Below are positions 3,405-51,021 of a stretch of DNA of 64,000 bases, in pieces. The DNA lies in assembly GCA_903884455.1 (NCBI GenBank), contig CAISEW010000003.1, positions 41,313-105,312 on the forward strand. Direction: 5' to 3'. A model generated the notes under the pieces. It did not search any database and had not been told where the DNA came from. It saw only the letters and a list, made by a program, of their open reading frames with translations. The position numbers and the translations under genes were made by a program. Origin of the DNA: an uncultured Chloroflexota bacterium. GTDB lineage: Bacteria > Chloroflexota > Dehalococcoidia > GIF9 > AB-539-J10. Each line of letters starts with the position of its first letter. The stretch's first letter is position 1.

Positions 3405-3450
3405 CTAAATTCCCAGTTGGCGTAAGCGTCATGTCTGATATGTCACCCGA

Positions 3451-3479
3451 GCGAAGCAAAGAATCTCTGAGATTCTTTG
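3451..3479. repeat. Perfect 11-bp-arm palindrome CAAAGAATCTC-T-GAGATTCTTTG preceded by GCGAAGCAA; short relative of the dispersed CGAAGCAATCTC repeat
   Basis: Read directly in the sequence, about 110 nt upstream of the alaS start. Confidence 0.5.
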
Positions 3480-3586
3480 TCGCCCAAATTCATTTAGACT
3501 CCTCAGAATAACATTACTAAACGCTCTCTTACAGCCCGATTGACATTAAAGCTGACACCTTCTAAAATCAAGAGGGTGACTGGTAA

Positions 3587-6256
3587 GTGACTGGTGACGA
3601 ACTAAGGCAAGCCTTTCTGAGTTTTTTTCAGGATAGAGGACATAAGATTATCCCCAGCTCCTCCTTGGTGCCTCATAAAGACCCCACTTTGCTGTTGACT
3701 AGCGCTGGCATGGTGCAAATTAAACCATATTTCCTGGGATTGGAGGCCCCACCTAGCCGGCGATTAGCTTCCTGCCAGAAGTGCTTTCGCACCACTGATA
3801 TAGATTCGGTGGGTGATAGCAAACACCTTACCTTTTTCGAGATGCTGGGCAATTTCAGCGTTGGCGACTATTTTAAAAAAGAAGCTATTTTGTGGGCGTG
3901 GGACTTTGTTACCAAGTATTTGAAACTGCCTGAGGAGCGGCTCTGGATAACTATTTACCGTGACGATGACGAAGCTTTCGCCTATTGGCGACAAATTGGC
4001 GTCCCCGCTGGGAAGATATTGCGATTCGGTGAAGAAGACAACTTCTGGGGTCCCGTTGGTGATTCTGGTCCCTGTGGACCATGCAGCGAGATTCACTATG
4101 ACCTTGGTGAAGAGTTTGGCTGTGGTAAAGCTGAATGTAAGCCTAATTGCGACTGCGGTCGCTTCTCCGAGATATGGAATCTGGTATTCACCCAATACAA
4201 TCAAGACCAAAGTGGACAACGCACTCCTCTACCCAACCCCAACATTGATACTGGTATGGGACTGGAGAGAACTTTAGCCGCTATTCAGGACAAGCCCTCC
4301 CCTTATGAAACAGCCCTGTTTTCTCCTTTGGTAGACCGAATTTGTCGCTTGTCTGGGAAAGAATACAGTCGGGGTGAGAATACCGACCGAGCCATTAGAA
4401 TTGTGGCTGAGCATTCACGCGGCATTGCCTTTCTTGTCGCCGATGGCGTAATGCCTTCCAACGAAGGCAGGGGATATGTCCTGCGACGAATACTCAGGCG
4501 GGCTTCGCTCTTCGGCAGGAAACTGGGATTAAGTGACCCTTTCCTTAATGAAATGGCTGAAGTCGTCGTTAGCACAATGAGCCATATATATCCCGAGCTT
4601 ATAGCTAATCAGAGCCTGATTACCGAAGTAATTAAGGTCGAGGAGGGAAAGTTCATTGCTACCCTGGATACCGGCCTCAACTTGGTGGAAAAGCTCATTG
4701 GCGAAGCTTCAGCTCAAGGGAGAGAAGGGCTGACAGGCGTCGAAGTATTCCAGCTTTACGATACCTATGGTTTTCCCCCTGAATTGACTGCTGAGATAAC
4801 CAGAGAAAAAGGCCTATCTATAGACTGGGAAGGTTTCCAGACTGAGATGGAGAGACAGCGAGAAAGGGCTAGGGTCAGCCAAAAGATCGGCACGGGGGGT
4901 GTTCAATTGAAAGCCGAGTACAAGGCTAAGACCATGCGTAGGGTCGTACGTAAGCAAACACATTTTGTTGGCTATCAAAAATACAGATCTAGGTCAAAGA
5001 TCCGCGATTTGATAATTAAAGAAAACTCTATGCGAGGTGTGGCTGAAGGTATTGAGGTTGACGTGATTCTTGACAGAACTCCTTTCTATGGTGAGATGGG
5101 CGGGCAGGTAGGCGATAGTGGCGAAATCGATAGCCAGAAGGGAAAGGTAGTCGTCATAAATACTATCAGAACTCCTTCGAACATGATAATACATAGGGGA
5201 AAGGTGGTTAAAGGGAGTATATCTATCGGTGACGAAGTGGAAGCCAAGGTTGATGTCGCCCGCCGCCTGGATATCGCTCGCAACCATACTGCCACTCATC
5301 TCATTCAGGCTGCTTTAAGGCAGACTTTGGGAAGCCATATTTACCAGAAGGGTTCGCTAGTAGAGCCTGAAAGGTTTAGATTTGACTTCTCTCACTTAGC
5401 TCCCATAACTGAGGAAAAGTTCAAGGAAATTCAGAGGCAGGTGAATGAATGGATACGCCAGAACTTGAAAGTGAAAGCAAAAAAACTCTCTTATACACAG
5501 GCCATCGCTGAGGGTGCTATTGCCTTATTTGAAGAAAAATACGGAGAAGAAGTTCGGATGCTGGAAATCGGGGAGCCGGCAATAAGTAAAGAACTCTGTG
5601 GTGGCACTCACGTGAGTTCAACGGGAGAAATTGGCATATTCTTGATAACCAGTGAAAGCAGCATTGGCACAGGACTGCATCGTATTGAAGCGGTAACGGG
5701 AAGAAAAGCTGAATCTCTAATTGAATCCCGTGTAGCAGCCTTGCAGAGCGTAGCCAAGGAAGTAGAAGGCTCGCTCGAAGAGGTTCCTAGCAAGGTGAGA
5801 GCTCTCATTAGCGAGCTAGGGGCAGAGCGTAAGAGAGTGCTTTCACTGGAAAGGGAGCTATCACGCAGAATAGCGGAGGATTTGCCTGAGCAAGCCGAGC
5901 AGGTGAGCGGTGTGACAGTTCTGGCTGCCAAGGTACCAACATTGACCCTGCCTATCCTCAGGGAAATGGGCGATATATTGCGAGACAGGCTAAAGAGCGC
6001 CATAGTGGTTTTGGCTACAGTTTATAATGGCAAGCCGAACTTTTTAGCCATGGTGACTCCTGACCTGATAGCCAGGGGATTTTACGCCGGCGATATTATT
6101 AATCAGGTAGCTAAGGTTACTGGTGGGGGTGGGGGTGGCAAGGCTGCTATGGCTCAAGCCGGCGGAAAAGATGCAGCCAAGGTTGACGAAGCTTTGAAAT
6201 TAGTCAAAAGTGTCATTGCAAGCCAAATCTCTATTTCCTCAGAGGGTAAAGATTAA
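3587..6256 (+). CDS. alaS: Alanine--tRNA ligase
   Basis: 889 aa. N-terminus RQAFLSFFQDRGH, editing-domain HxxxH motifs, C-terminal Gly-rich DHHA1 tail. GTG start. Confidence 0.95.
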   Translation: MTGDELRQAFLSFFQDRGHKIIPSSSLVPHKDPTLLLTSAGMVQIKPYFLGLEAPPSRRLASCQKCFRTTDIDSVGDSKHLTFFEMLGNFSVGDYFKKEAILWAWDFVTKYLKLPEERLWITIYRDDDEAFAYWRQIGVPAGKILRFGEEDNFWGPVGDSGPCGPCSEIHYDLGEEFGCGKAECKPNCDCGRFSEIWNLVFTQYNQDQSGQRTPLPNPNIDTGMGLERTLAAIQDKPSPYETALFSPLVDRICRLSGKEYSRGENTDRAIRIVAEHSRGIAFLVADGVMPSNEGRGYVLRRILRRASLFGRKLGLSDPFLNEMAEVVVSTMSHIYPELIANQSLITEVIKVEEGKFIATLDTGLNLVEKLIGEASAQGREGLTGVEVFQLYDTYGFPPELTAEITREKGLSIDWEGFQTEMERQRERARVSQKIGTGGVQLKAEYKAKTMRRVVRKQTHFVGYQKYRSRSKIRDLIIKENSMRGVAEGIEVDVILDRTPFYGEMGGQVGDSGEIDSQKGKVVVINTIRTPSNMIIHRGKVVKGSISIGDEVEAKVDVARRLDIARNHTATHLIQAALRQTLGSHIYQKGSLVEPERFRFDFSHLAPITEEKFKEIQRQVNEWIRQNLKVKAKKLSYTQAIAEGAIALFEEKYGEEVRMLEIGEPAISKELCGGTHVSSTGEIGIFLITSESSIGTGLHRIEAVTGRKAESLIESRVAALQSVAKEVEGSLEEVPSKVRALISELGAERKRVLSLERELSRRIAEDLPEQAEQVSGVTVLAAKVPTLTLPILREMGDILRDRLKSAIVVLATVYNGKPNFLAMVTPDLIARGFYAGDIINQVAKVTGGGGGGKAAMAQAGGKDAAKVDEALKLVKSVIASQISISSEGKD

Positions 6257-6307: not shown

Positions 6308-6802
6308 ATGCGCAGCTTAGGACTAGATGTCGGAGGTGAGAGAACCGGGGTGGCTGTAAGCGATCCTCAGGGGATTTTAGCTACTCCTTTAACTGTGCTT
6401 GCCAGTAAAGACGAAGATGCCCTTATAAATGAGATTCTCAAGCTTGTGGAACGGTATAAGGCAGAGTGCGTTGTGGTTGGCTTGCCTCGCCGCCTAAACG
6501 GCGAGTTGGGAAAACAAGCTGGTAAGGTAACAGTTTTCACCGACAAATTGTCATGGCAGGCGAAGCAAAACAATCTCAACCAGCTTGATATACAATTATG
6601 GGATGAACGACTCTCTACCAAAGCTGCCAAGCGCTTGAAGATGGAAGCTGGAGGCAAAGGAAATAAACTGCGCCACGGGGCGAAACGAGGAGGCAAAAAT
6701 CACAGCTTTTCGGCTAAAGCCGGAGTAGATGCCATAGCGGCGGCCTTTATCCTCCAAGGTTTTCTGGATAGCCACCGCCTGAGCAATAGCGAAGAATCTT
6801 AA
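6308..6802 (+). CDS. ruvX: Holliday-junction resolvase-like protein RuvX/YqgF, with a Lys/Gly-rich C-terminal extension
   Basis: MRSLGLDVGGERTGVAVSD...DERLST motifs of the YqgF RNase H-like family. Confidence 0.85.
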   Translation: MRSLGLDVGGERTGVAVSDPQGILATPLTVLASKDEDALINEILKLVERYKAECVVVGLPRRLNGELGKQAGKVTVFTDKLSWQAKQNNLNQLDIQLWDERLSTKAAKRLKMEAGGKGNKLRHGAKRGGKNHSFSAKAGVDAIAAAFILQGFLDSHRLSNSEES

Positions 6803-8616: not shown

Positions 8617-9785
8617 TGGGACAATTTCGTTTTCTTACTGGTGGAGAATCCCATGGGAAGGGTTTGGTAGCCATCGTAGAAGGGATGGTGGCTGACCTCA
8701 CCCTGGAAGAGGGATATATCCATAAGGAACTCAAACGCCGCCAGCAGGGCTACGGGCGTGGTCCTCGCATGAAGATTGAAGAAGATAAGGCGGAAATTAT
8801 GGCCGGTGTTCGCTATGGGTTCACTACAGGTAGCCCCATCGTCCTCTTTATCATCAACCGAGATTGGCAAAACTGGCAGGAACAGTTAAGCGTTTCCCCG
8901 ATAGAGAAAGAAATCGAGCCTGTAACCTGTCCCCGCCCGGGACATGCCGACCTGGCCGGAGTGACTAAATATGGTCTCAAAGACATCAGGCCGATTATGG
9001 AAAGAGCCAGTGCCCGGGAAACAGCCGCCAGAGTAGCTGTCGGGGCTATAGCCCGAAGATTTCTGGAGGAGTTGGGCATTGCTATCCACAGCCACACTGT
9101 GGCAATTGGGCAACATAGCTGGGAGCGAGGAGAAGCAAACTCTATAGATTGGCAGCAAGTAGAAACCTCTCCAGTCCATTGTGCCCATGCCAAGCTAGAA
9201 AAAGCGATGATGGCAGCTATCAATGAGGCCAAAGCTAATGGCGACACATTAGGAGGCATTTTTGAGGTGATTGCTATTGGTGTCCCCATTGGCTTGGGCA
9301 GCCACGTTAGCTGGGATCGCCGTCTCGATGGCCGAATTGCTCAAGCGATAATGAGCATCAATGCTGTGAAAGGGGTGGAAATCGGAGCAGGATTTGCTCT
9401 AGCCGAACTTAAAGGTTCGCAAGCCCACGATATTATCGAACCCAGCCCACGTAGCAAAGCGAAGGGGTTCCCCTGGCGACATGGCACTAACCGTGCCGGT
9501 GGCATTGAAGGTGGCATAACCAATGGCGAGGACATAATAGTCAAGGCAGCAGTCAAACCTATTGCCACCCTAGCTAGTCCTTTACCTTCTATAGACCTTC
9601 GCAGTGGAGAAGTAGCGAAGGCTCACTATGAACGCAGCGATATTTGTGTTGTCCCGGCCGCCGGAGTGATTGCCGAAGCCATGTTAGCCATTGTTCTGGC
9701 TGACGCTTGCCTAGAGAAATTCGGCGGCGATAACTTAAAAGAGACCCTGGCAAATTATCACAATTATTTGAGCAATATATCTTGA
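8613..9785 (+). CDS. aroC: Chorismate synthase
   Basis: N-terminus GQFRFLTGGESHGKGL, 390 aa. Start overlaps the sppA stop. Confidence 0.95.
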   Translation: MMGQFRFLTGGESHGKGLVAIVEGMVADLTLEEGYIHKELKRRQQGYGRGPRMKIEEDKAEIMAGVRYGFTTGSPIVLFIINRDWQNWQEQLSVSPIEKEIEPVTCPRPGHADLAGVTKYGLKDIRPIMERASARETAARVAVGAIARRFLEELGIAIHSHTVAIGQHSWERGEANSIDWQQVETSPVHCAHAKLEKAMMAAINEAKANGDTLGGIFEVIAIGVPIGLGSHVSWDRRLDGRIAQAIMSINAVKGVEIGAGFALAELKGSQAHDIIEPSPRSKAKGFPWRHGTNRAGGIEGGITNGEDIIVKAAVKPIATLASPLPSIDLRSGEVAKAHYERSDICVVPAAGVIAEAMLAIVLADACLEKFGGDNLKETLANYHNYLSNIS

Positions 9786-10638: not shown

Positions 10639-12360
10639 ATGAAATTAGACAAGCGAATAACTAATCTCATTATCACAGGTTTCTCAGGCACCGGTAAATC
10701 TCTGGTAGCTATGGATGTAGCCCGGAGATTAAATTGGGATTTCCTGGATACCGATGATGAGATAGTTAGACAAACTGGCAAGCCTATCGCCGAGATTTTT
10801 CGTCAGGATGGGGAGGGCAAGTTTCGGGAACTGGAACGCGAGACGATTAGAAAAGCTTGCCAGCAAAGGCAAACAGTCATAGCTATTGGCGGTGGAGCCA
10901 TAGTTGACCCTCAAAACTATAAGTCGCTTGCCAAAACTGGGTTAATTGTTTGCCTGGAGGCTAAACCCGAGACAATTTATGAGCGCTTATTCCGTGAGGC
11001 TGCTCGTAGTCCTGAGACCGAAGTTCGTCCCCTTTTAGCTGTTGATAATCCCTTGGAACGTATCAGGCAGCTTAAAGCCTCCCGGCAACCTTACTACGCT
11101 AAAGCGGATTGGACTATCCATACTGACGGCTTAAGCGTCAGTGAAGTAGCAGAGGAGGTAATAAGGGCTTCGAGATTGCTTCATCGCACTGATAGCTTTC
11201 AGCTTTCAGCTTTCAGTGACAAAGATGTTGCTTGCATGGTGAAGACTGCTACTCAAAGTTATCCTCTCTTTGTTGGCTATGGTTTATTGGACAAACTCGG
11301 TGAGAAGATGAAACAAACTGCTCTATCTGGCACAGCCACCGTAATTAGCGATGAGAACGTCTTCTCTCTTTATGGCAGCAAAGTTGAGGGAGTCCTCAAG
11401 GGAGCTGGTTTTGCCATTAATTCCTTTGTGGTGCCGCCGGGTGAAGAAACGAAAAGCATGGACTATGTCATCAAGATTTACGATTTCCTTGTTGAGCATC
11501 GAGCGGAGCGAGACGATATTATCATCGCCTTGGGTGGGGGCATGGTAGGTGACTTAGCGGGTTTTGTCGCTGCCACCTTCTTACGAGGTATGTTCTGGAT
11601 ACAAGTGCCAACCAGTTTGGTAGCCATGGTTGATGCCAGCATCGGGGGTAAGGTCGGCGTTAATCATCCTGAGGGAAAGAACCTTATTGGTGCCTTCTAT
11701 CAGCCTGACCTGGTTTTGGCTGACTGTCAGACTCTTACCACTCTGCCTCAGCGTGAACTGACCTCAGGCTGGGCTGAAGTTATTAAGCATGGCTTGATTT
11801 TAGATGAGGAATTTTTTCAATTCCTAGAGAGCAATGTTAATAAGCTGACAAAGCTAGAGCCGGAACTGTTCACCCGAGCTATTGCCCGTAGCGCTACTAT
11901 CAAGGCTCAGGTCGTCAGCCAGGATGAAAAAGAAAGGGAAGGGAAACGCACCATTTTAAATTACGGACATACTATTGCTCATGGATTGGAGGCGGCTACT
12001 CAGTATAAGCGCTTTCTTCATGGCGAAGCGGTAGCCATTGGCATGGTGGGAGCTGCTAAGCTCAGTCAGCGATTGGGGCTTCTGCCTTCAGTGGCAGTGG
12101 AGCGCCAACAAGCCCTATTGCAAAAATTTGGCCTGCCCACGTCATTGCGAGCCGAAGCTGCGAGCCAAAGGCGTGGCAGGCAGCGAAGCAATCTCAAGTT
12201 GAGCCTGGCCGGGGTAACCAGGGCCATGGAACTCGATAAAAAAGTGAGAGGAAAGGCAATTCGCTGGGTGCTGTTACAAGATATTGGCAAGGTAGTAATT
12301 CGCAGTGATGTGCCTCAGAAGGAAGTGTTAGCCGTTCTTCAGGAGCTAGCGGAGCAGTGA
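10639..12360 (+). CDS. aroKB: Bifunctional shikimate kinase / 3-dehydroquinate synthase (AroK-AroB fusion)
   Basis: N-terminal P-loop GFSGTGKS with the shikimate-kinase LID region. From about residue 190, the DHQ synthase motifs GGGMVGDLAGF and DASIGGKVGVNHPEGKN. 573 aa. Confidence 0.85.
   Translation: MKLDKRITNLIITGFSGTGKSLVAMDVARRLNWDFLDTDDEIVRQTGKPIAEIFRQDGEGKFRELERETIRKACQQRQTVIAIGGGAIVDPQNYKSLAKTGLIVCLEAKPETIYERLFREAARSPETEVRPLLAVDNPLERIRQLKASRQPYYAKADWTIHTDGLSVSEVAEEVIRASRLLHRTDSFQLSAFSDKDVACMVKTATQSYPLFVGYGLLDKLGEKMKQTALSGTATVISDENVFSLYGSKVEGVLKGAGFAINSFVVPPGEETKSMDYVIKIYDFLVEHRAERDDIIIALGGGMVGDLAGFVAATFLRGMFWIQVPTSLVAMVDASIGGKVGVNHPEGKNLIGAFYQPDLVLADCQTLTTLPQRELTSGWAEVIKHGLILDEEFFQFLESNVNKLTKLEPELFTRAIARSATIKAQVVSQDEKEREGKRTILNYGHTIAHGLEAATQYKRFLHGEAVAIGMVGAAKLSQRLGLLPSVAVERQQALLQKFGLPTSLRAEAASQRRGRQRSNLKLSLAGVTRAMELDKKVRGKAIRWVLLQDIGKVVIRSDVPQKEVLAVLQELAEQ
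11194..11216. repeat. 3x tandem heptamer AGCTTTC at the AroK/AroB domain junction
   Basis: Read directly in the sequence. It is in frame (21 nt), encoding SFQLSAF in the inter-domain linker. Confidence 0.6.
12141..12195. repeat. Intragenic copy of the dispersed repeat GTCATTGCGAG...CGAAGCAATCTC (55 nt, in frame within aroKB)
   Basis: The 11-mer and 12-mer termini are identical to the intergenic copies at 18211 and 43139. It encodes an extra segment (...SLRAEAASQRRGRQRSNLK...) in a normally short AroB C-terminal region. Confidence 0.6.
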
Positions 12361-16415: not shown

Positions 16416-17405
16416 TTAGCCCAGTTTGGCGGCTTCCTCTCTAACCAGGCGGCGGATCCTTTTATGGATTTCCAAAGCAGGCGTTATATCCTTAGTTCCG
16501 TCTAACCAATGTAACCATCCTCTATCCTTTGCCCCCCCCGTTTTCTCCCTCTTTTTGACCACTCTTTCAACATCCTCGCGGCCACCTTTCTCCCAGGCTT
16601 CCAGAACTACCAATAAATCATATAGACTTACCGATGCCAGACCCAGAGTGGAATAAGGCAAGGCATATTCATTAGCGTTGAAAGCAATGGCTAAGCCACT
16701 TGCTTTATCCACAGCCCGAAGCATTTTGAAATCGGTGATGCTATCACCTACAACCGTCCAATGAGAAAGCGGTTTTCCCATTCTTGTGCTAAAGTTCTCC
16801 AATGCCTCTACCTTGCGCCTCCCTCCCACGGGTTTCACTTGGCTTATAATTCTTCCCCAACTTGTTTGAGGCAATTTCTGCCAATAAAAATAGTCCAGAT
16901 ATTCCCTTATTCTAGTATCGTCAGTAAAAGGATTAAGATTCACAATTTCATGTTCTGTTTGCTCCAGTAAGGCAAATTCATTTTGGCTTAATAATTGGCG
17001 AACCTGCGCCAGGGGAAAGGAGGTGCAAGCTACATTCTCACTGGGTATGCCCAGTCTCTGTGTGATGGGGAAGGCATATTGTTCATAACTGGTACTAATA
17101 CAAAATATGTACCACCCTCGAGATTTAAGTTTGGAGATTAATTCAGTTGCACCTGGGGTTAACCCGGCTTTCTGCCCCATAGCTGTGCTTTGTTCCTCTT
17201 CTATTCCATGATAAGCAAGGAAAGGAATGATGAGAGCAAGTGTATCTCCCGGCTCATAGTCAGGCCGACCTTCTAAAGTCAGCAAATCATCATAACGGCT
17301 GATGACCTCAAAAATCTTGTCGCCACGGGGGAATAGCTTCATCAGTTCATAGGCATTATCTTGGGGAGCTAAAGGGCCCTCGAGGTCAAAGCAAATCAAG
17401 TTCAT
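16416..17405 (-). CDS. Divergent HAD-superfamily hydrolase-like protein (motif I DLEGPL, motif IV GDSITD)
   Basis: 329 aa. ATGA overlap with the upstream formyltransferase-family gene, implying translational coupling. Confidence 0.55.
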   Translation of the reverse strand: MNLICFDLEGPLAPQDNAYELMKLFPRGDKIFEVISRYDDLLTLEGRPDYEPGDTLALIIPFLAYHGIEEEQSTAMGQKAGLTPGATELISKLKSRGWYIFCISTSYEQYAFPITQRLGIPSENVACTSFPLAQVRQLLSQNEFALLEQTEHEIVNLNPFTDDTRIREYLDYFYWQKLPQTSWGRIISQVKPVGGRRKVEALENFSTRMGKPLSHWTVVGDSITDFKMLRAVDKASGLAIAFNANEYALPYSTLGLASVSLYDLLVVLEAWEKGGREDVERVVKKREKTGGAKDRGWLHWLDGTKDITPALEIHKRIRRLVREEAAKLG

Positions 17406-18160
17406 TTAAGATTTTTCTTCACCTCCTCATCTACCTTACCGCTGAGATTATAGCCACTGATTAACTTTCCTTGGGCATTGATTACTCTCCTGTTCTTTAT
17501 GCTGACCTCACCCCGACTCAGAGATTTTAATGTCAAGGTGATAAGAGGGAATTCCCTAGCAAGTTCGTGCTGGCGAATAAGCCGAAACAGCATGTTTTTG
17601 TCGTCCTTCCTCCAATATTCAGCGAAGGGCTCACCTTTAATAGAGAAGAGGCAGTAGCTAACTACTGGACCCCTATCTAGCTCAGGAGTAACCAAGTGCA
17701 TCATTGCCCCGGCAGTCTCGGCTTTATTTTGTATTAATGCCCATATTACCTTCTGCCAGCTACCCGTAGGTCCACCGGGAGGCGCAGGATGAAGATTAAT
17801 CATATCGTATTTTTGGCATAGCTCTGCACTCACGATGAGCATATAGCCAGCAAGAACACAAAGGTCGGGAGCAAATGGTTTAATCTTCTTGTTTACCTCT
17901 CTATCGTATTTGATACGCCACTCTTTTTCTTCTCCGACAGTCTTAAACTTTCTGTAAGATAAACAGACAAGAGGAATGTTGTAGCTCCGAACAAGCTCGA
18001 AGAACCGGTCGCTTTCCTTCGCCTCGCCAGGTTCTCGGTTGCTAAACACGAAGCTGATTTCCCCGTTAATGTCGCTGCTGTGGCTCTTATCCCACACAGC
18101 TTGCAAAAGCTGTCGAGCAGCTTCATCTCTACCTGTGGAAAACCAGCCAATGTTCAACAA
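17402..18160 (-). CDS. Formyltransferase-family protein (PurN/Fmt N-domain fold) with an atypical NLHPAPPGGP motif
   Basis: Matches PurN-like motifs (FSNRE..., LAGYM, HP, ...LDRGPV). The H-P-A-P-P-G-G-P motif deviates from canonical HPSLLP. Confidence 0.65.
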   Translation of the reverse strand: MLNIGWFSTGRDEAARQLLQAVWDKSHSSDINGEISFVFSNREPGEAKESDRFFELVRSYNIPLVCLSYRKFKTVGEEKEWRIKYDREVNKKIKPFAPDLCVLAGYMLIVSAELCQKYDMINLHPAPPGGPTGSWQKVIWALIQNKAETAGAMMHLVTPELDRGPVVSYCLFSIKGEPFAEYWRKDDKNMLFRLIRQHELAREFPLITLTLKSLSRGEVSIKNRRVINAQGKLISGYNLSGKVDEEVKKNLK

Positions 18161-18210
18161 GAACCCGTTTTACCTTCCTCACTCATGTCATTTTGAGCCC
18201 TTCGCTTTTT

Positions 18211-18238
18211 GTCATTGCGAGCGAAGCGAAGCAATCTC
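18211..18238. repeat. Intergenic copy of dispersed repeat GTCATTGCGAG-CGAAG-CGAAGCAATCTC, preceded by a T5 run
   Basis: Read in the sequence between the PHP gene end and the formyltransferase gene start. Confidence 0.65.
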
Positions 18239-18245
18239 CTAGTGC

Positions 18246-18917
18246 TCAGGATAAACTCTGCAAAGAATATCCAAATATATGTTTCCTTATCCTGGCCCAC
18301 GTGCTAGCAAAATGAGCTAAATAGCTAGATTTTTGCCCGAATATTTTGCCCTGAGCTAAAGACTTTAGGAAGTCGTCAGGTCCATCGAATTCGGGCATTT
18401 CCACATATGCTTGGCCGATTTCGCCTAAAGTATGGGCATCGCTGCCAGCGCTGGCAGCCTTTCCCTGCTCTTCGGCTAGTTTCCGTGCTTTGGCGATACT
18501 ACTAGAAAATGGCGTACGAGAATTAAAAGTTTCGATAATATCCACCTGGGATAAAACTTCCGTTGAGGTTAATATGTTAGCATTCCAAGGCAAAGACCTG
18601 CCAAATGGATGGGGAATAGCCACTAGACCGCCCTGGCTTCGGATTTTAGATATTGTTTCCTGGGGAGACAATCTCTGGGAAACTTCTTCGCCAAGAAAGA
18701 GACCCATTATTTCACCCACAGGCGTTAATATCTCCTCAGCAACAATTACTTTAAACGGAGCAATTTCCCTTAACTTTAAGGCGCCAGCAATGGTGTTGTG
18801 GTCCGCTACAGCAATACAATTTATGCCCAGCTTGAGGCAACGCTCGACTATTTGCTCCAAAGGTGTGAGACAATCTATAGAATAGCAAGTATGGATATGT
18901 AAATCAGCTTTTATCAA
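18246..18917 (-). CDS. PHP-domain metal-dependent phosphoesterase
   Basis: N-terminus MIKADLHIHTCYS and ADHNT motifs of the PHP family; 223 aa. Confidence 0.8.
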   Translation of the reverse strand: MIKADLHIHTCYSIDCLTPLEQIVERCLKLGINCIAVADHNTIAGALKLREIAPFKVIVAEEILTPVGEIMGLFLGEEVSQRLSPQETISKIRSQGGLVAIPHPFGRSLPWNANILTSTEVLSQVDIIETFNSRTPFSSSIAKARKLAEEQGKAASAGSDAHTLGEIGQAYVEMPEFDGPDDFLKSLAQGKIFGQKSSYLAHFASTWARIRKHIFGYSLQSLS

Positions 18918-41713: not shown

Positions 41714-43009
41714 CTATTGTGCAAATAGCTTATCTTCCAGTCTGCTTCTAATATCCCTGGCAGCAACAGCACGCCGATAATATTCTCGTTTTGTCTCCTC
41801 ACTGGCCCCGCTCTTATTTATAGCCCGGTAAGCGTTAACCACAGTTCGCCATTGGTCGAGCAAGCCCATGTGGATGAGATTGATGTCCCACATAGGGCAA
41901 TTACTGGCCCACCACATCTGGCAACTATGCTCAGCTCGATCCAGAAGTCCCCGGGCAATGGTAGCAGAGCGCCGACTTTCCTCATTATCCGCACACTCCA
42001 GCGCCTTATTCACCAACTCAATGCATATACCCAAGTGTTCCCACTGAAGATGGTGCACTTCATTGTTCTTATCCTGCCAAAGAGGGTAATAGTTACCAAC
42101 TTTCATATCATCGGCAGTGGTGCTCCAGGAGGATGGCTTGGGGTCTATCATTTGACTCTGAGGAAAGAGGTCGAGGAGTTCGCTCAAGGTAACCATCTGG
42201 ATTTTGGTGGCAGCTTCGCCATTGGTCAACAAAGAGATATGTTGCCCAGCTAATACCGTAGCCTGTTGAATATCTGGAGTATGTTCTGACCAAGGCTCTA
42301 GTTCTTCGTAAACCTTGGCCAGGAATATCCTTTCCCAACCCTGGATGTGATGGCCATAAGTTTCGGCATCCATAGCCGTGACTACATAAATATTCTCTCT
42401 TTTACCCTGCCACTGCTCCAGGTGGGCAATAAATTCTTTTGCTTCTACATTTCGAAAACTTATCCTATTGCTGAGCACATCGTCTCGGAAGAAAACCGCT
42501 ATTTCCTGTCCATCACACCCCGCTCTGTAAATAATATCTAGAGGCCATTCCGCAGGGCAGGCAATACCGCTCAGGATAATCCAGCGATACCCTGACTTGA
42601 TAATAGGCTGCAAAATGCCCTGGCTGTAGCACATCTCTGGGGGAAAAAATCCTTGGGGGGCATATGCCTTTCCAAAGAAGCGACGATTTGTCTGCATGTT
42701 CAGGTCTATCTGCCTCTTTACTTCCTCCGTGGGTATCAAGGGGAGAATAGGGTGATACTTGCCGGTTCCGGTGAATTCAAGTTGACCATTCTCAGCAAGG
42801 CTTCTCAAGCCATCGACTACATCTTTATGGCCGCAGTCCATCAGCATATCAGTCAGGACACCATTGAAGTTTATGGTTACTCGAGCGTTGGGATACTCTT
42901 CAAAAACGTGGAGCAGAGGGCGGTAAGATTCGTCGCATATCCTTTTTAGCATCGACGGTACCTGGGTTGGCGGCTGGTAGAAATGCAGTAGCTGAGCCCA
43001 GTAGATCAT
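41714..43009 (-). CDS. GH57-family glycoside hydrolase (alpha-glucan branching / 4-alpha-glucanotransferase-like)
   Basis: N-terminus LLHFYQP resembles the GH57 H-x-H-x-P motif; the context is glycogen metabolism; 431 aa. Confidence 0.65.
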   Translation of the reverse strand: MIYWAQLLHFYQPPTQVPSMLKRICDESYRPLLHVFEEYPNARVTINFNGVLTDMLMDCGHKDVVDGLRSLAENGQLEFTGTGKYHPILPLIPTEEVKRQIDLNMQTNRRFFGKAYAPQGFFPPEMCYSQGILQPIIKSGYRWIILSGIACPAEWPLDIIYRAGCDGQEIAVFFRDDVLSNRISFRNVEAKEFIAHLEQWQGKRENIYVVTAMDAETYGHHIQGWERIFLAKVYEELEPWSEHTPDIQQATVLAGQHISLLTNGEAATKIQMVTLSELLDLFPQSQMIDPKPSSWSTTADDMKVGNYYPLWQDKNNEVHHLQWEHLGICIELVNKALECADNEESRRSATIARGLLDRAEHSCQMWWASNCPMWDINLIHMGLLDQWRTVVNAYRAINKSGASEETKREYYRRAVAARDIRSRLEDKLFAQ

Positions 43010-43138
43010 ATGTACCTCCGAGTGAAAATCTTATCCAGGTAATTCAAAGAAAGTAGCGAATCTCGCTTATTCTAACATACACTTGGGTTGCAAAGTAACT
43101 TTTTGTCCTCGTTCAGTACCGTAGTGACACTTTTTTTT

Positions 43139-43173
43139 GTCATTGCGAGGAGCGATAGCGACGAAGCAATCTC
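43139..43173. repeat. Intergenic copy of dispersed repeat GTCATTGCGAG-GAGCGATAGCGA-CGAAGCAATCTC, preceded by a T8 run
   Basis: Read in the sequence between the GH57 gene start and the mutL end. Confidence 0.65.
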
Positions 43174-43328
43174 TAGGCGAGGTTTCTCAATCCAACTATA
43201 GCAGACTCCAGCTTCACAATGAGATTGCCACGCCTTCGGCTCTCAATGACACGGAAGGTTATTATTATTCTGAAGAAGGTTAAACCGAGGCAAAGCTCAA
43301 ATTTACCACTCCAGCCGGGGCCAAGGGG

Positions 43329-45008
43329 CTAGCTTATCCTGCCAAACTCCTTCTCTAGTTGATGAGAATTTAAATGAATCATAGTTGGCCGGCCGTGGGG
43401 ACAGGTGCGCGGTTGCTTGGTTTGCTCTAGCTGCTTTATTAGCTCCCGCATTTCTTCGTTGCTTAGCTGCTGTCCTGCTCTGATAGCACCATGGCAGGCT
43501 AAAGATTGGGCTATCTTTTCCTCCCAGGGATTAGGACTTTCCTTGCTAGCAAGGCTATCAAGCAGCGCACTTATTATCTCAATAATATTCGCCCTGGCCA
43601 CTAGTGCCGGTATGGCACGTATCAGATAGCTTCTATTTCCGAAAGGCTCAATGGCGAAGCCAAATTCGGCCAGAAACTCTTTACCAGCTTTCAGGGTCTC
43701 TTCCTCTCTGGGGCTAAACTCTATGGTTATGGGCTGGAGTAAGCCCTGGACTTCAACTTCCTTGTGTGACCACTGTGCTAAAATTCGGTCATAAAGTATG
43801 CGCTCATGAGCAGCATGCTGGTCGATGAGATAGAGTCCATCGGGTCCCTCGGCGATAATATAGGTGTTGGCTAGCTGCCCCAGTACCCTCAAAACTGGTA
43901 ATTCCAGGGTCGGCAGCTGGGCAACAACAAAGGCTGGCTCGTTATCCATTATCATGCGGGGGCTCTGCCACTGCCCTGAACTGACCGAGAAGGGCACAGC
44001 TTTCGAGCTGGCTATAGGCGTCCTGGCTAATCCCTCCTCTATGGCTTTCTGTACGCTGCTAAAGACAGTTTGTTCATGGCAAAACTTTATCTGGGCTTTG
44101 GCGGGATGGATATTGACATCAAGCTCTTGAGCCGGCAGGGAGACATTGATTACCGTAATGGGATGCTGTCCATCCATGAGTAAGCCACGATAGGCTTCCT
44201 CAGTTGCCCGAGTTAGTAAGGGACTGTGCACCCACCTTCGATTAATGAAGAAGCTGAGATAGTTGCGATTAGAACGGGCCAAGGAAGGTGGACTTGTTAG
44301 GCCACTGACTTTAGCCAGGCCATCCCTTTGTTCCACCTTTAGCATCCTTTGAGCTAGCTCGGAACCATATATCTCGCTTACCACCTCGCGCAGGTCGCCA
44401 TTGCCCGTAGTGCGCAGGCTCTGGCGTTTGTCAAGAACCAGGCTGAACTTAACCTCGGGGAAAGCCAGGGCGTACTGACTTACCAAATGGGCGATGTGGC
44501 TATTTTCGGTATTTGCCGATTTGAGAAACTTAAGTCGCGCCGGGAAATAGCGAAATAATCGGCGCACGGTTACGGTAGTGCCTTGTGACCTGGCTCGGCT
44601 CTCCTTGCGGACTACCTCCCCCTTTTTCAAATACATATAGCTGCCAATTGGATCTGATGATGTTTGGGTGGAAATTTCTACTTCGGCGACAGCGGCGATG
44701 CTGGGCAGGGCTTCGCCTCGAAAGCCAAGGCTGGAGATTTTCTCCAAATCGTCTAAGTTGCCGATCTTGCTCGTGGCATATCTGTGAAAGGCAAGCTCTA
44801 GCTCCGAGGCCGGGATACCTGTCCCATTATCGCTCACTTTGATTAGCTCTACTCCGCCGCCTTGGGCTTCTACGGCAATCTGAGTGGCTCCCGCATCGAG
44901 GGAATTCTCTATCAGCTCCTTGACCACCGAGGCCGGCCTCTCAATCACCTCCCCAGCAGCAATCTTGGAGACCACCTCAGTCGCTAAAATCTTAATAGGC
45001 ATCTGCAT
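43329..45008 (-). CDS. mutL: DNA mismatch repair protein MutL
   Basis: GHKL ATPase N-terminus (ELIENSLDAGA, GTGI). No endonuclease-motif check possible by eye; 559 aa. Confidence 0.9.
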   Translation of the reverse strand: MQMPIKILATEVVSKIAAGEVIERPASVVKELIENSLDAGATQIAVEAQGGGVELIKVSDNGTGIPASELELAFHRYATSKIGNLDDLEKISSLGFRGEALPSIAAVAEVEISTQTSSDPIGSYMYLKKGEVVRKESRARSQGTTVTVRRLFRYFPARLKFLKSANTENSHIAHLVSQYALAFPEVKFSLVLDKRQSLRTTGNGDLREVVSEIYGSELAQRMLKVEQRDGLAKVSGLTSPPSLARSNRNYLSFFINRRWVHSPLLTRATEEAYRGLLMDGQHPITVINVSLPAQELDVNIHPAKAQIKFCHEQTVFSSVQKAIEEGLARTPIASSKAVPFSVSSGQWQSPRMIMDNEPAFVVAQLPTLELPVLRVLGQLANTYIIAEGPDGLYLIDQHAAHERILYDRILAQWSHKEVEVQGLLQPITIEFSPREEETLKAGKEFLAEFGFAIEPFGNRSYLIRAIPALVARANIIEIISALLDSLASKESPNPWEEKIAQSLACHGAIRAGQQLSNEEMRELIKQLEQTKQPRTCPHGRPTMIHLNSHQLEKEFGRIS

Positions 45009-45044: not shown

Positions 45045-47249
45045 TTATGCGGAAAAATCAAAGTCTTTCTCGATTTTTTCCAGGGGTGCCAGGCCGGCCA
45101 GGAGTTTCTTAACCCCCGCTTCTTCAAAGACTACGGTCAGCTCCTGGTCATCCCTTGTAGGATTGCAATTCATCACTATGCCGGGGCCAAACTTGCTATG
45201 GCGGACATGGTCACCGACCTTTAGCGTTAGAGTGCTAGAAGGCCGAGGTGAAGGCTGGGAGTCCCGATTAAAATCGGGACTGGCGACAGGAGTCGGGCTC
45301 TCTTCCCATAGTCCTCTCGGGCTTATTAAGTGGGGTGAGATGTCCTGGAGGAAGCGGGAGGGGGGATTTGCCGTGCTGCCGCCGAATAAGCTCCGACGGT
45401 AACTGCGCAAAAGGTAGAGCCGCTTCTTAGCTCTGGTTATTCCCACATAGCAAAGACGACGCTCTTCTTCCATTTGCTCCGGGTCGTCGAACGATTTCCT
45501 GTGTGGGAGAATTCCTTCCTCCAGACCAACAATAAAAACCGCGGGGAACTCCAATCCTTTAGCTTGATGCAAGGTGATCAGAGTCACAGCATCGGCTTTT
45601 TCATCCAGTTCATCTATATCCGATACCAGGCTTACTTTTTCCAAAAATGTAGTTAAAGCTTCTTCAGTGTCGAGCTTATCATATTCGCTGGCAACATTGC
45701 GCAGCTCCGTTATGTTCTCCCACCTCTCCTCCCCATCTTCCTTGTCCAGAATATATTCTCTATATCCGGTGTGCCCCAGTATCTTATCTAGTAGACGAGG
45801 AAGACTTAGCTCATGGCTTTGGGCAATGAGCTCAGCCATAAGAGCATCAAATCCCGCCAGAGCCTGGACAATGCGTGAGGGAAGAGACTGCTTCGCTTCG
45901 CCGGCAATGGTATTGTGACTCACCTGTTTTAGAGCCTCGAAAAGGGAGGTATTATGAGCTTTTGCCCAGGATTGAAGCGTGTTAATGGTCTTTTGCCCAA
46001 TGCCTCTGCCAGGCACATTTACGATTCGAGTCAAACTGACATTGTCCTGCGGATTATGGATAACTCTGAGGTAAGCAATAATATCTTTAACTTCTTGCCT
46101 TTGATAAAAGCGGGTGCCGCCAACGAGCTTATAAGGCACACCATACCTCAAAAAAGTTTCCTCTAAGGCTCGCGATTGAGCATTAACCCGATACATGACA
46201 GCGCAATCTTTAAGGGATATTTGCTCCTGGCCGATGAGCTTCTCTATCTCGCTGACCACGGATTGGGCTTCTTCCTCGGCATTATAACTTTCGATAACGG
46301 TTACCGAAGCTCCGTCTTCGTTTTCCGTCCAGAGCTTTTTAGGCTTGCGCAACACATTGGCTGAGATAACGTCTGAAGCTACCTCTAAGATTGTCTTAGT
46401 GGAGCGATAGTTCTGCTCCAGAAACACCACTTTGGCTTCGGGGTAATCCTTCTCAAAGCTCAGGATATTACGTAAATCAGCAAATCTCCAGGAATAAATA
46501 GATTGGTCAGGGTCGCCAACCACGCACAGATTCCGGTATTTTCCTGCTAGGTGCTTCATAAGCTCATACTGGGCGATGTTGGTATCCTGGAATTCGTCAA
46601 CCAAAATATGAACATACCTTGACTGGTATCTGGTGAGGATTTGAGGATGGTCACGGAACAACTGCACCGTCTTCATCAGTAAGTCATCGAAATCTACCGC
46701 TTGAGCCTGGCCAAGTAATTGCTGATAGCGTTGATAAACTCTGTGGACTATCTCCTCAAAATAACTGCTAACCCACTCAGCGTAGTCTTCAGAGCTAATG
46801 AGACGGCTCTTAGCTGCGCTGATGGCCGACCGTAGTGCCTGAGGAGCATACTGCTTGACATCGAGGTTCAGTTCTTCCAGGGTTTGTTTCATCAACTTTA
46901 ACTGGTCGTCCTCATCGTAGATAACAAAACTCGACTCAAGCCCGATAGTTTTGCCCTCACGACGGAGAATTCGAGCACAAATGGCGTGAAAGGTGCCTAA
47001 ACTCAAGGCCTCTGCCACCTGCCCCAGAAGCTGTTCCAATCTCTCTTTCATTTCTCGGGCGGCCTTGTTGGTAAAGGTAACTGCCATAATGTTGCGGGGG
47101 CTAACGCCGCAGGTTTTAATCAAATAGGCAACTCGATGGGTAATCACTCTGGTCTTGCCGCTGCCGGGTCCCGCCAGGATAAGTACAGGCCCCTTGATGG
47201 CCTCCACAGCTTCTCTCTGGGCAGGATTAAGCGTGGCTAAGATATCCAT
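45045..47249 (-). CDS. pcrA: ATP-dependent DNA helicase PcrA/UvrD
   Basis: SF1 motifs: Walker A AGPGSGKT, DEFQDT, and the rest of the UvrD-family order; 734 aa. Confidence 0.9.
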   Translation of the reverse strand: MDILATLNPAQREAVEAIKGPVLILAGPGSGKTRVITHRVAYLIKTCGVSPRNIMAVTFTNKAAREMKERLEQLLGQVAEALSLGTFHAICARILRREGKTIGLESSFVIYDEDDQLKLMKQTLEELNLDVKQYAPQALRSAISAAKSRLISSEDYAEWVSSYFEEIVHRVYQRYQQLLGQAQAVDFDDLLMKTVQLFRDHPQILTRYQSRYVHILVDEFQDTNIAQYELMKHLAGKYRNLCVVGDPDQSIYSWRFADLRNILSFEKDYPEAKVVFLEQNYRSTKTILEVASDVISANVLRKPKKLWTENEDGASVTVIESYNAEEEAQSVVSEIEKLIGQEQISLKDCAVMYRVNAQSRALEETFLRYGVPYKLVGGTRFYQRQEVKDIIAYLRVIHNPQDNVSLTRIVNVPGRGIGQKTINTLQSWAKAHNTSLFEALKQVSHNTIAGEAKQSLPSRIVQALAGFDALMAELIAQSHELSLPRLLDKILGHTGYREYILDKEDGEERWENITELRNVASEYDKLDTEEALTTFLEKVSLVSDIDELDEKADAVTLITLHQAKGLEFPAVFIVGLEEGILPHRKSFDDPEQMEEERRLCYVGITRAKKRLYLLRSYRRSLFGGSTANPPSRFLQDISPHLISPRGLWEESPTPVASPDFNRDSQPSPRPSSTLTLKVGDHVRHSKFGPGIVMNCNPTRDDQELTVVFEEAGVKKLLAGLAPLEKIEKDFDFSA

Positions 47250-50070: not shown

Positions 50071-51006
50071 TTGGCAACTTACCTGGAGCTTTACCGTAGT
50101 GGCAAGCTAAGGAATCGGGTAGATGCGGCTGTATCTTTACTGGAGAGTTGCTCCGTATGCCCTCTCAGTTGTGGTGTGAATCGCCTGGCTGGCAATGTAG
50201 GCAAGTGCCGCACTCCCCGCGAAGCAATGGTATCCAGCTATGGGCCTCACTTCGGCGAGGAAGCCCCATTGGTGAGCAGACATGGTTCGGGTACTATATT
50301 TTTCACTAACTGCAACCTTAGATGTCTGTTCTGCCAGAATTATTCCATTAGCCAGCTAGGCGAAGGTCAGAAGGTGAGCAAAGAAGAGCTAGCTTACATA
50401 ATGCTCTTCCTCCAAGCTAGAGGATGCCACAATATAAACTTGGTGTCCCCAACCCACGTAGTGCCTCAAATTCTGGAAGCACTGGGGCTAGCAGTGGAGT
50501 CAGGCTTACATCTCCCCTTAGTATACAACAGCGGTGGCTATGACTCGGTGGAGACCTTGAGGATACTCGACGGCATTGTTGATATTTATATGCCTGACAT
50601 GAAATACGACGATGAGGAAACTGCTCGAGAATTGTCGGGCATTGAAAACTATCCTGAAGTAAATAAAGCAGCAATCAAAGAAATGCATCGGCAAACAGGT
50701 GACTTGGAGATAAACGAGGAGGGAGTGGCTCAACGAGGACTCCTGGTTCGACACCTGGTTTTACCCCACGGTTTGGCAGGAACAAAAGGGATAGTGAATT
50801 TTCTCAGCAAAGAAATTTCCCGCAACACCTATGTCAATATCATGGCCCAATACCATCCTTGCTACAAGGCTCTTCAAACTCCAAGTTTAGGGCGGCGAAT
50901 ATCATCTGCAGAATTTCATGAGGCATTATCTTTAGCTCAAGAAGCAGGGCTAAGTCGGCTGGATAAAATCCATCCCGTAGAGATTCTTCACATTCGCTCA
51001 GAATGA
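50071..51006 (+). CDS. Radical SAM enzyme (PflX / AmmeMemoRadiSam-type)
   Basis: CNLRCLFCQN radical-SAM cluster motif plus an N-terminal CxxCxxxC...C cluster; 311 aa; TTG start. Confidence 0.8.
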   Translation: MATYLELYRSGKLRNRVDAAVSLLESCSVCPLSCGVNRLAGNVGKCRTPREAMVSSYGPHFGEEAPLVSRHGSGTIFFTNCNLRCLFCQNYSISQLGEGQKVSKEELAYIMLFLQARGCHNINLVSPTHVVPQILEALGLAVESGLHLPLVYNSGGYDSVETLRILDGIVDIYMPDMKYDDEETARELSGIENYPEVNKAAIKEMHRQTGDLEINEEGVAQRGLLVRHLVLPHGLAGTKGIVNFLSKEISRNTYVNIMAQYHPCYKALQTPSLGRRISSAEFHEALSLAQEAGLSRLDKIHPVEILHIRSE

Positions 51007-51021
51007 CAAAGATAATTGAGA

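Follow-up and report, generated by a model that had tools for sequence, protein, structure and literature searches.

The window, the 64-kb stretch of a Dehalococcoidia genome analysed here, carries an aroK-aroB gene whose coding sequence holds one copy of a short repeat also present in two intergenic spacers, one between a formyltransferase and a PHP gene and the other between a GH57 gene and mutL (GH57 and MutL were named by Pfam, PHP and the formyltransferase by an annotated syntenic locus). These copies, their relatives in the window and the main host genes are as follows.

3443-3486, + strand: possible decayed sister-dialect doublet upstream of alaS (E ~3, by itself not significant)
6212-6231, + strand: marginal candidate for a truncated copy, at the 3' end of alaS (GTCATTGCAAGCCAAATCTC, encoding VIASQIS; covariance model E 0.4)
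6550-6577, + strand: decayed 28-nt copy in frame in ruvX (SWQAKQNNL; 5/28 mismatches to the commonest form)
9453-9471, + strand: probable relic in aroC (AGCAAAGCGAAGGGGTTCC), at the position of an intact 28-nt copy that relative L209 carries in frame
10639-12360, + strand: aroK-aroB (573 aa), with two element-derived segments, in the linker and in a C-terminal loop
11168-11216, - strand: decayed copy in the aroK-aroB linker (RLLHRTD...), antisense to the gene (covariance model E 0.7)
12141-12195, + strand: composite copy of 55 nt, in frame within aroK-aroB, in the C-terminal region of the DHQ synthase (covariance model E 1.4e-6)
17402-18160, - strand: formyltransferase ORF
18187-18205, + strand: truncated left half (GTCATTTTGAGCCCTTCGC), immediately upstream of the next copy
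18211-18238, + strand: canonical 28-nt copy in the formyltransferase/PHP spacer (covariance model E 4.6e-11)
18246-18917, - strand: PHP ORF
43139-43173, + strand: 35-nt copy in the GH57/mutL spacer, first half of an inverted doublet (covariance model E 3e-12)
43221-43250, - strand: inverted partner, of the CGTGGCAATC dialect (GTCATTGAGAGCCGAAGGCGTGGCAATCTC; covariance model E 1.5e-5)
45884-45911, - strand: decayed 28-nt copy in frame in a UvrD/PcrA helicase gene (IAGEAKQSL; 5/28 mismatches)
50980-51007, - strand: sister-dialect copy (GTCATTCTGAG...GAAGAATCTC; covariance model E 0.18)

A preliminary description of this DNA had reported identical ends in the copies at 12141-12195, 18211-18238 and 43139-43173, together with T-runs before the two intergenic ones. 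All of this is exactly as stated, including the names of the neighbouring genes: the three copies, all on the + strand, share the ends GTCATTGCGAG and CGAAGCAATCTC, with a CGTC tag at 12141 and a TGTC tag at 18211 and 43139. Chance does not explain the matching ends. With at most one mismatch, the left end is matched 5 times against 0.87 expected and the right end 6 times against 0.39, a number reached in none of 100 shuffles. Two weaker relatives had also been proposed. The ruvX copy stands, since 60 simulated windows contained no match at six or fewer mismatches, whereas the site upstream of alaS, which includes the palindrome picked out earlier, is marginal and looks like a decayed sister-dialect doublet. 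Missed at that stage were the copies at 43221-43250 and 50980-51007 and the relics in uvrD/pcrA, the aroK-aroB linker, aroC and the alaS 3' end. The first of these is separated by 47 nt from the copy at 43139-43173, the pair forming a REPIN-like doublet; the second supplies, with its TGA, the stop codon of ORF 50071-51006. The decayed linker copy contains a (GCTTTCA)3 run; its orthologous counterpart in relative L206 is intact (E 4.6e-11).

Folded as ssDNA of the strand reading GTCATT... (motif strings GTCATTGCGAGCGAAGCGAAGCAATCTC and TTTGTCATTGCGAGCGAAGCGAAGCAATCTCC), the element has a 5-bp outer stem, ATTGC/GCAAT, which is the inverted repeat already noticed in the preliminary description, then an internal loop of purines, GA facing GAA, and an inner stem-loop whose sequence is free. 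The conserved flanks, YGTC on the 5' side and C(TC) on the 3' side, are unpaired and give the element an orientation. Among 58 copies taken beside GIY-YIG genes, pairing was found in 89.8% of cells, against 22-24% in five of six slid controls and 55.5% in the remaining one (-3 slide). Cells changed on both sides numbered 33, against 9.0 in shuffles (none of 500 as high), and inner cores of at least 10 nt formed at least 4 bp in 44 of 98 cases, against 3.8 in shuffles. The folding and these counts show that the element is a two-part hairpin with a covarying inner stem. An oriented hairpin repeat with an xGTC 5' flank and a C right after the palindrome is also what characterises the Ssn-related motifs (SRMs, 20-50 nt).

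Covariation of this kind, the location of intergenic copies near gene ends and the RNA roles suggested for REPs by Di Nocera et al. (PMC3733652) could point to an element acting at the RNA level, as a terminator, an mRNA-stabilising hairpin or a regulatory RNA motif under selection on transcripts. Against this, copies lie in both orientations relative to genes and also within coding sequence, and Rfam recognised no family at the gathering threshold in the window or in six repeat-rich loci, nor at the E-value threshold around the copy at 43139-43173. The RNA form of the repeat is not bound by SsnA of Neisseria (PMC11893778). A terminator role in particular is rejected: the T-runs are 5' of the hairpin, not 3', and a terminator scan placed no terminator-like site on either element. 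An element acting at the RNA level seems improbable.

The element family is not confined to this genome, nor is the motif unique to the three places first noticed. At least 120 genome contigs contain the exact motif, with its 23 specified bases, and the matches listed span about 20 phyla. In metagenome loci that encode a GIY-YIG protein of about 95 aa and for which both flanks were available, the element lies within 150 nt on both sides of the gene in 59 of 71 cases and on at least one side in 70, against a background of 0.06 per 150 nt, and the TGA of TGAGATTGC is often the stop codon of the flanked gene. GIY-YIG is the sole Pfam domain of this protein; comparison with NCBIfam gave only a weak similarity to group-I-intron endonucleases, and a PDB search only a weak UPF0213 match. 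Across an ungapped stretch of 89 residues it shares 44% identity (E 2e-26) with the product of a 94-aa ORF of N. gonorrhoeae that is unannotated in its record and flanked by canonical NTS repeats. We infer that this gonococcal ORF is the orthologue of SsnA, the ssDNA-specific nuclease of Neisseria (Chenal 2025, PMC11893778). NTS and the element share the frame YGTCATT-[palindrome]-AATC-Y. Judged from gene neighbourhood and homology, these loci show the cognate gene of the element to be a GIY-YIG nuclease of about 95 aa of the Ssn family. Homologues of the protein exceed 8000 at E <= 1e-10. The best 120 database matches include Anaerolineae, Omnitrophica, Deferribacter and Thermodesulfovibrio, with none labelled Dehalococcoidia, and no ssn gene was found in the 64-kb window, in 158 kb of loci from close relatives (8 related loci) or in two contigs that reach about 8 kb upstream of the window start.

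Another possibility is a classical REP/REPIN family mobilised by a RAYT of the IS200/IS605 Y1 family. The element resembles such repeats as a short imperfect palindrome with an unpaired 5' tag, dispersed in copies that are mostly intergenic, often in inverted doublets and without target-site duplication. However, the tag is YGTC, not GTAG; the bracketed gene encodes a GIY-YIG nuclease; and all-against-all ORF clustering in 120 element-bearing loci revealed no recurrent neighbouring transposase. CGTC-tagged REPs likewise have no associated transposase (Di Nocera et al., PMC3733652). Moreover, each REPIN-RAYT system is confined to a lineage, whereas this motif recurs unchanged in about 20 phyla among the matches listed. 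Mobilisation by a RAYT is accordingly an unlikely origin.

Filled and empty versions of the same site are available at two places. The aroB copy is a 28-nt form with a further 27 nt nested in its core, and the nested piece (TGCGAGCCAAAGGCGTGGCA) is similar to the stem of a second family member. It encodes S502-L519 (SLRAEAASQRRGRQRSNL), in frame as had been claimed, about seven residues away from the positions first given ('about 495-512'). Alignment of AroB orthologues, as had been proposed, shows the segment to be inserted: orthologues 86-87% identical to the window protein do without it, and solved DHQ synthases have a gap at its position, the loop being 13 residues shorter. In close orthologues the site is empty, occupied by the 28-nt form or occupied by longer forms, with identical borders in all. 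The copy in aroB is thus a genuine insertion. Short and long alleles are interspersed, and not separated, in a neighbour-joining tree of AroKB built with the insert masked. The insertion is not a clean one: compared with the empty site there is a net gain of 18 nt and about 10 nt of target are replaced, which may reflect secondary changes or another route such as recombination. The site of the copy at 18211-18238 is empty in two syntenic relatives (L003 and L209), which have 4 nt (ACAA) where the window has 62 nt, a net gain of 58 nt; the truncated half at 18187-18205 is part of the sequence that replaces ACAA. Across the two sites 4-10 nt of target were replaced. The check for target-site duplications that had been suggested gave none of regular form at either, the only candidate being an imperfect CTCATG/CTCAGG repeat at the PHP site.

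Presence and absence at orthologous sites, dispersal, short length and inverted termini would also be expected of a MITE derived from a DDE-type insertion sequence and inserted by cut and paste. The first label given to the family, 'REP/MITE-like', is nevertheless appropriate only in its first half, for a dispersed REP-like hairpin family. At 28-55 nt the element is far below MITE size, the target-site duplication is not consistent, no DDE transposase was found nearby in the 120 loci, and the covarying inner stem is typical of a hairpin recognised by its structure, so that a MITE in the usual sense is very improbable. That the aroB segment is native protein, resembling the intergenic repeats by coincidence in an open frame of an apparently intact gene, is refuted by the empty alleles, and has next to no probability given the gap in solved DHQ synthases, the 23 nt of ends identical to intergenic copies and the same 28-nt unit in frame in unrelated genes of relatives.

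The capacity to land in coding sequence without breaking the frame, suggested from the aroB copy, extends to aroC, DUF1015, ruvX, uvrD and the aroK-aroB linker in this lineage, intact copies being present in relatives in aroC (L209, in frame), DUF1015 and the linker (L206). Of the element's six reading frames, five lack stop codons; for the frames of the + strand, 85-91% of elements contain no stop, compared with 62% in shuffles. Translation of the purine-rich strand yields charged and flexible peptides, SLRAKRSNL and VIASEAKQS among them. Open frames and peptides of this type could explain how insertions survive in AroB, the AroK-AroB linker, RuvX, UvrD and AroC, and the survival of insertions in genes is in this sense partly shown. 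Several in-frame copies in housekeeping genes of one Dehalococcoidia genome are an uncommon situation, previously described elsewhere. A logo of the flanks of the copies contains only a Y at position -1 (T 52%, C 34%) and no target motif.

The best overall explanation, and one we hold with good confidence, is that the repeats in the window are non-autonomous copies of a YGTC-tagged hairpin repeat belonging to an Ssn-type GIY-YIG system. The autonomous arrangement is two inverted hairpins bracketing a single-domain GIY-YIG gene of about 95 aa homologous to Neisseria SsnA; the gene-less doublet at 43139-43250 and the single copies at 18211-18238 and 12141-12195 are derivatives of this cassette. 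By homology, the putative cognate Ssn would bind the hairpin as ssDNA only and cut a few nucleotides 5' of it. Spread may proceed through ssDNA events that do not duplicate the target site and can exchange a few of its bases. The enzymes of the GIY-YIG class are nucleases that act by hydrolysis, and strand transfer is not known among them. Inserted copies would later decay or be overwritten by other family members through gene conversion, and those tolerated within genes would be insertions with a net length divisible by three, in surface loops or linkers of proteins.

A stronger version of this proposal seems to us possible but doubtful. The hairpin-ssn-hairpin cassette would be a selfish entity moving horizontally through most bacterial phyla, with gene-less hairpins integrating by an undescribed GIY-YIG-dependent ssDNA route; such a route would leave the target unduplicated, exchange a few of its bases and be followed by homogenisation through gene conversion. 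If this version were true, the polymorphic aroB, aroC and spacer sites would record the state before and after integration and could be used to deduce its chemistry.

The Ssn enzyme family was characterised only in 2025. The orthologous empty, short and long alleles described here demonstrate that insertion is real, that insertions can be nested and that the core is turned over in place. After Rickettsia, the window and its relatives are also the second clear example of essential enzymes (AroB, AroC, RuvX, UvrD, AlaS) that tolerate hairpin repeats in frame. For genome annotation, a repeat origin becomes recognisable for peptides like SLRAKRSNL, VIASEAKQS and RLLRFARND when they turn up in predicted proteins.

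The element belongs with a class of repeats that has been described twice, as CGTC-tagged REPs (PMC3733652) and as Ssn-related motifs with NTS/dRS3 as prototype (PMC11893778), because the protein that it flanks is homologous to the NTS-flanked gonococcal ORF taken as the SsnA orthologue. A literature search with repeat DNA and peptide strings (among them LRFARND, VIARSEATKQS and CATTGCGAG) returned nothing relevant to it. The published SRM pattern, HGTCWYN(0-2)YYVSBRHN(0-5)WNVSBRGN(0-2)RNCYNB, a search tool derived from 29 genomes and not a definition of the class, matched the canonical NTS and no copy in the window because of a G at a Y position and the interrupted stem. A very widespread dialect has thus been overlooked by this pattern, and the reported 71% association of Ssn genes with repeats is therefore probably an underestimate.

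As in the SRM/NTS system, the element is an oriented hairpin of the form YGTCATT...AATC-Y, multi-copy, chiefly intergenic and present in many phyla, and it lies on both sides of a single-domain GIY-YIG gene of about 94 aa (cd10448-type in SRM systems); an NTS-ssnA-NTS architecture has been described in Neisseria (PMC11893778). Unlike NTS, which has a continuous 8-bp stem, the element has a split stem (5 bp, a GA/GAA loop and a variable inner stem), and the copy downstream of the flanked gene lies in inverted orientation and extends over its stop codon. NTS copies are intragenic in about 2% of cases (PMC11893778), whereas several copies in the window are in frame within genes. Strand-specific ssDNA binding and cleavage a few nucleotides 5' of the hairpin are known only for the Neisseria and Wolbachia enzymes (PMC11893778), and cleavage by an Ssn of this dialect would follow by analogy. 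In NTS, mutation of the C after the palindrome abolishes binding and mutation of the GTC tag abolishes cutting.

With the CGTC REPs the element shares an unpaired CGTC/TGTC tag (the superfamily allows CGTC, TGTC and CCTC), a stem whose first pairs are A-T and T-A, an unpaired tail of 3 nt, frequent dimers of oppositely oriented units and, as documented for that superfamily (Di Nocera 2013, PMC3733652), copies inside genes without an associated transposase. In families CGTC-1 to -4 the stems are continuous and 8-9 bp long, the loops measure 4-5 nt and the tail is CCA (Di Nocera, De Gregorio and Rocco 2013, PMC3733652); in contrast, the element has an interrupted stem, a core of 3-40 nt, variable loops and a CTC or CCC tail. 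The Rickettsia elements RPE-4 and RPE-6 have been equated with CGTC REPs, whose families were described from 5 phyla, mostly Alphaproteobacteria (PMC3733652). The present element is found in about 20 phyla among the matches listed.

Rickettsia palindromic elements reportedly (Ogata et al., 2000) occur in frame in housekeeping genes, adding short peptides without inactivating the protein. The likeness lies in the in-frame palindromic repeats in housekeeping genes of a small, gene-dense genome; unlike RPE-1, of about 100-150 bp and from an intracellular alphaproteobacterium, the units described here are 28-55 nt long and come from a free-living Dehalococcoidia lineage. A further parallel is offered by the REP/REPIN-RAYT systems (Bertels and Rainey 2011; Nunvar 2010; Ton-Hoang 2012), with their singlets, inverted doublets, one repeat-flanked cognate gene and recognition as ssDNA, the last of which would apply to the element by analogy. 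These systems differ in having a GTAG tag and a Y1 (HUH) transposase in place of a YGTC tag and a GIY-YIG nuclease, and REPINs are vertically inherited and lineage-specific, whereas the motif of the element is common to many phyla.

The three copies of the element lie exactly where the preliminary description had placed them, all on the forward strand and with the same ends, GTCATTGCGAG and CGAAGCAATCTC, which enclose cores of 5, 12 and 32 nt. When up to one mismatch is tolerated, the window contains 5 occurrences of the left end against 0.87 expected, and 6 of the right end against 0.39 expected; the latter count was reached in none of 100 shuffles. The 55-nt copy is located inside the aroK-aroB ORF (10639-12360) and is translated as T-SLRAEAASQRRGRQRSNL-K (residues 502-519). 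The neighbours proposed for the intergenic copies are likewise confirmed, GH57 (41714-43009) and MutL (43329-45008) by Pfam, and the formyltransferase and PHP genes by the annotated syntenic locus of a close relative (L003).

A covariance model was trained on 58 copies adjoining GIY-YIG genes, which were thus selected by protein and not by DNA motif; it gave four strong matches in the window. Decayed copies were sought by aligning the commonest 28-nt form to the window without gaps; in 60 simulated windows, this gave no match with 6 or fewer mismatches.

Copies and relics of the element in the window
12137-12199, forward strand: copy 1, in aroB (covariance model, E 1.4e-6)
18207-18242, forward strand: copy 2 (covariance model, E 4.6e-11)
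43135-43177, forward strand: copy 3 (covariance model, E 3e-12)
43217-43254, reverse strand: inverted partner of copy 3 (covariance model, E 1.5e-5)
6550-6577: decayed copy in ruvX (5/28 mismatches; translation SWQAKQNNL)
45884-45911: decayed copy in the UvrD/PcrA gene (5/28 mismatches; translation IAGEAKQSL)
11168-11216: relic in the aroK-aroB linker, reverse orientation
9453-9471: probable relic in aroC
6212-6231: possible relic at the 3' end of alaS
50980-51007: sister-dialect copy, whose TGA terminates ORF 50071-51006

The original list of three copies and a ruvX relative stands but was incomplete, since both searches added copies; the other weak relative that it included, upstream of alaS, is marginal (E about 3). 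Copy 3 and its inverted partner are separated by 47 nt and form a doublet, and short-spacer inverted doublets are common among element-bearing genomes. The outer stem of the sister-dialect copy, ATTCT/AGAAT, differs from ATTGC/GCAAT by a compensatory change, and the element supplies the final codons and TGA stop of the ORF (...EILHIRSE*). Truncated left halves, consisting of GTCATTGCGAG and a few nucleotides, also occur (18187-18205 in the window); among 502 full copies in loci L005-L204, such halves within 40 nt upstream are commoner than orphan right halves downstream (13 vs 3). The junction CCCTTCGCTTTT(T)GTCATT is common to one of the comparison loci (L159) and the window. Tandem arrays with a spacing of roughly 50-90 nt, found in L008, L057 and L045 (Chloroflexus, Caldatribacterium), are superficially CRISPR-like, but the hairpin ends are present in every unit.

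Folded as ssDNA, the element has an outer stem (ATTGC/GCAAT), followed by an internal loop in which GA faces GAA and an inner stem-loop free in sequence and length. Pairing holds in 89.8% of cells of the 58-copy alignment, against 22-24% in five of six slid controls and 55.5% at the -3 slide. The inner stem covaries: both-side changes are found at all five inner pairs (33 cells vs 9.0 in shuffles, with none of 500 shuffles as high). Among distinct cores, 98 are 10 nt or longer; 44 of these contain four or more contiguous pairs, against 3.8 in shuffles. No terminator pattern was found, and a terminator role was rejected. A pyrimidine (T or C) occupies position -1 in 86% of copies, and the flanks show no target motif beyond it. 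Stop codons are absent from the three forward-strand frames in 85-91% of elements (62% in shuffles); a TGA is always present in one frame of the reverse orientation. Element lengths are not biased to multiples of three, so in-frame survival reflects filtering by selection and is not intrinsic to the element.

The aroB copy is an insertion, as the preliminary description had proposed, and element sites are polymorphic. Several allele states are present at the aroB C-terminal site in the best 120 AroKB homologues (79-94% identity to the window protein), whose taxon-labelled members are Dehalococcoidia or Chloroflexi.

Allele states at the aroB C-terminal site
Empty: GLPTGFSGLDLTEIT, 556-558 aa
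Short: GLPTSLRAKRSNLKLSLAGVT, 564 aa
Long (window type): 573 aa
Variants with other cores: SPDLSGRG; SAEALNVVKG

All filled alleles share the DNA borders CCCAC/NTCATT...AATCTC/AAGTTGAGC (slashes mark the borders). The canonical 28-nt unit on its own makes up the short allele; in the window allele, a further 27 nt are nested within the core of this unit. The nested piece is similar to the stem of another family member, and relatives have differing apexes at this position. The empty allele carries TGGCTTTTCC in place of the unit, giving a net gain of 18 nt, and comparison of empty and filled alleles reveals no target duplication. Solved DHQ synthases show a 13-residue gap facing the insert, and their loop has the length of that of the empty allele. 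In a neighbour-joining AroKB tree with the insert masked, empty alleles mostly cluster and short and long alleles are interspersed, a pattern compatible with more than one order of events and with a part for recombination. Close relatives differ in gene order upstream of aroK-aroB, with two arrangements, DAHP synthase-CM-Zincin-SPP (L001, L002, L206, L207, L208) and alaS-ruvX-aroE-aroC-lactamase (window, L003, L004, L209); aroB insertion state does not track this split.

Insertion polymorphism extends to a second window site, the spacer holding copy 2, which is 27 nt long in L003 and L209; in the window, 62 nt replace 4 nt. Close relatives also carry intact in-frame copies in several other genes, which in the window are relics or missing.

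Intact copies in close relatives
L209, 8844-8879: 28-nt copy in aroC (chorismate synthase), translation VIASEAKQS, frame different from that in aroB
L206, 10530-10571: canonical copy in the aroK-aroB linker, counterpart of window 11168-11216
L208, 375-410: 28-nt unit in a DUF1015 gene, translation SLRAKRSNL, frame as in aroB

In the window (9453-9471) and L003, the aroC site holds a diverged remnant, AGCAAAGCGAAGGGGTTCC, 15 nt shorter than the L209 copy. The six other sequences compared, among them those in which the aroB C-terminal site is empty, all have a long-decayed linker copy, and the decayed versions contain a (GCTTTCA)3 run; the contrast with L206 points to in-place renewal by gene conversion or, alternatively, to conservation specific to a lineage. 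In another close relative (L210, 18609-20432), the gene called at the aroK-aroB position encodes only 435 aa, without the shikimate-kinase domain, and is preceded by about 500 uncalled nucleotides, which could reflect a frameshift or an assembly break near the linker relic.

An exact-motif scan (23 specified bases) detected the element in at least 120 genome contigs, with about 20 phylum-level groups among the matches listed. These include Chloroflexota, Pseudomonadota, Desulfobacterota, Bacteroidota, Patescibacteria, Planctomycetota, Bacillota, Omnitrophota, Gemmatimonadota, Myxococcota, Armatimonadota, Atribacterota, Elusimicrobiota and others, and the cultured isolates Sporomusa malonica, Flavobacterium defluvii, Chryseobacterium herbae and Chloroflexus islandicus. 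Clustering of ORFs neighbouring the element recovered no transposase; in three loci it recovered a small GIY-YIG protein whose gene has the element on both sides. In a reciprocal survey of 80 metagenome loci encoding relatives of this protein, 71 of which had both flanks, the element lay within 150 nt on both sides in 59 and on at least one side in 70 (background 0.06 per 150 nt), at median distances of 23 nt upstream and 14 nt downstream. These Ssn-type genes are thus tightly bracketed by this dialect; the downstream copy is usually inverted and often contains the gene's TGA. More than 8000 homologues were found at E <= 1e-10, many on contigs shorter than 2 kb, as expected of a repeated unit. 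No ssn gene is present within the 64-kb window or in 158 kb from relatives.

By BLASTP, the GIY-YIG protein is homologous to a 94-aa Neisseria gonorrhoeae ORF (44% identity over 89 ungapped residues, E 2e-26), unannotated in its record and flanked by canonical NTS repeats, which is probably the SsnA orthologue. The record (L205, NZ_CP119140.1) and NZ_CP119142.1 are both 2.17-Mb N. gonorrhoeae entries in a plasmid collection, where chromosomes have evidently been filed as plasmids. In Neisseria, the 94-aa SsnA consists of a single GIY-YIG domain; it binds the NTS hairpin repeat, CGTCATTCCCGCGMAVGCGGGAATCYRG, as ssDNA only and cleaves a few nucleotides upstream of the repeat. Binding depends critically on the C following the palindrome, and cleavage on the three bases upstream of the palindrome (Chenal et al. 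2025, PMC11893778). By homology, the cognate Ssn protein may show the same ssDNA-specific binding and cut 5' of the hairpin. Copies could spread via nuclease-dependent events on ssDNA and repair-templated copying, cores may be swapped between copies through gene conversion, and in-gene copies would be neutral passengers within loops and linkers.

The element is real and well supported, and represents a dialect of a known kind of repeat, not a new category; its natural-history value lies in the series of empty, short and long alleles and in how many copies sit in frame within a streamlined genome. SsnA homologues occur in many phyla, flanked by Ssn-related motifs (SRMs), and the NTS-ssnA-NTS layout resembles an insertion sequence (PMC11893778). 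The frame YGTCATT-palindrome-AATC-Y is common to NTS and the window element. None of the window copies matched the published degenerate SRM pattern, which places this dialect outside that search tool, and no Rfam family matches the element. CGTC-tagged REPs, with which dRS3 and Rickettsia RPE-4/-6 have been equated, have a CGTC or TGTC tag, an A-T-first stem and a 3-nt tail, form dimers and lack an associated transposase (Di Nocera et al. 2013, PMC3733652). Their in-frame intragenic units are often in repair genes, e.g. uvrABCD (PMC3733652), and the window uvrD/pcrA copy (45884-45911) is consistent with this. Stems in the four described CGTC families run uninterrupted for 8-9 bp; that of the window element is split, which makes the split-stem form a further family.
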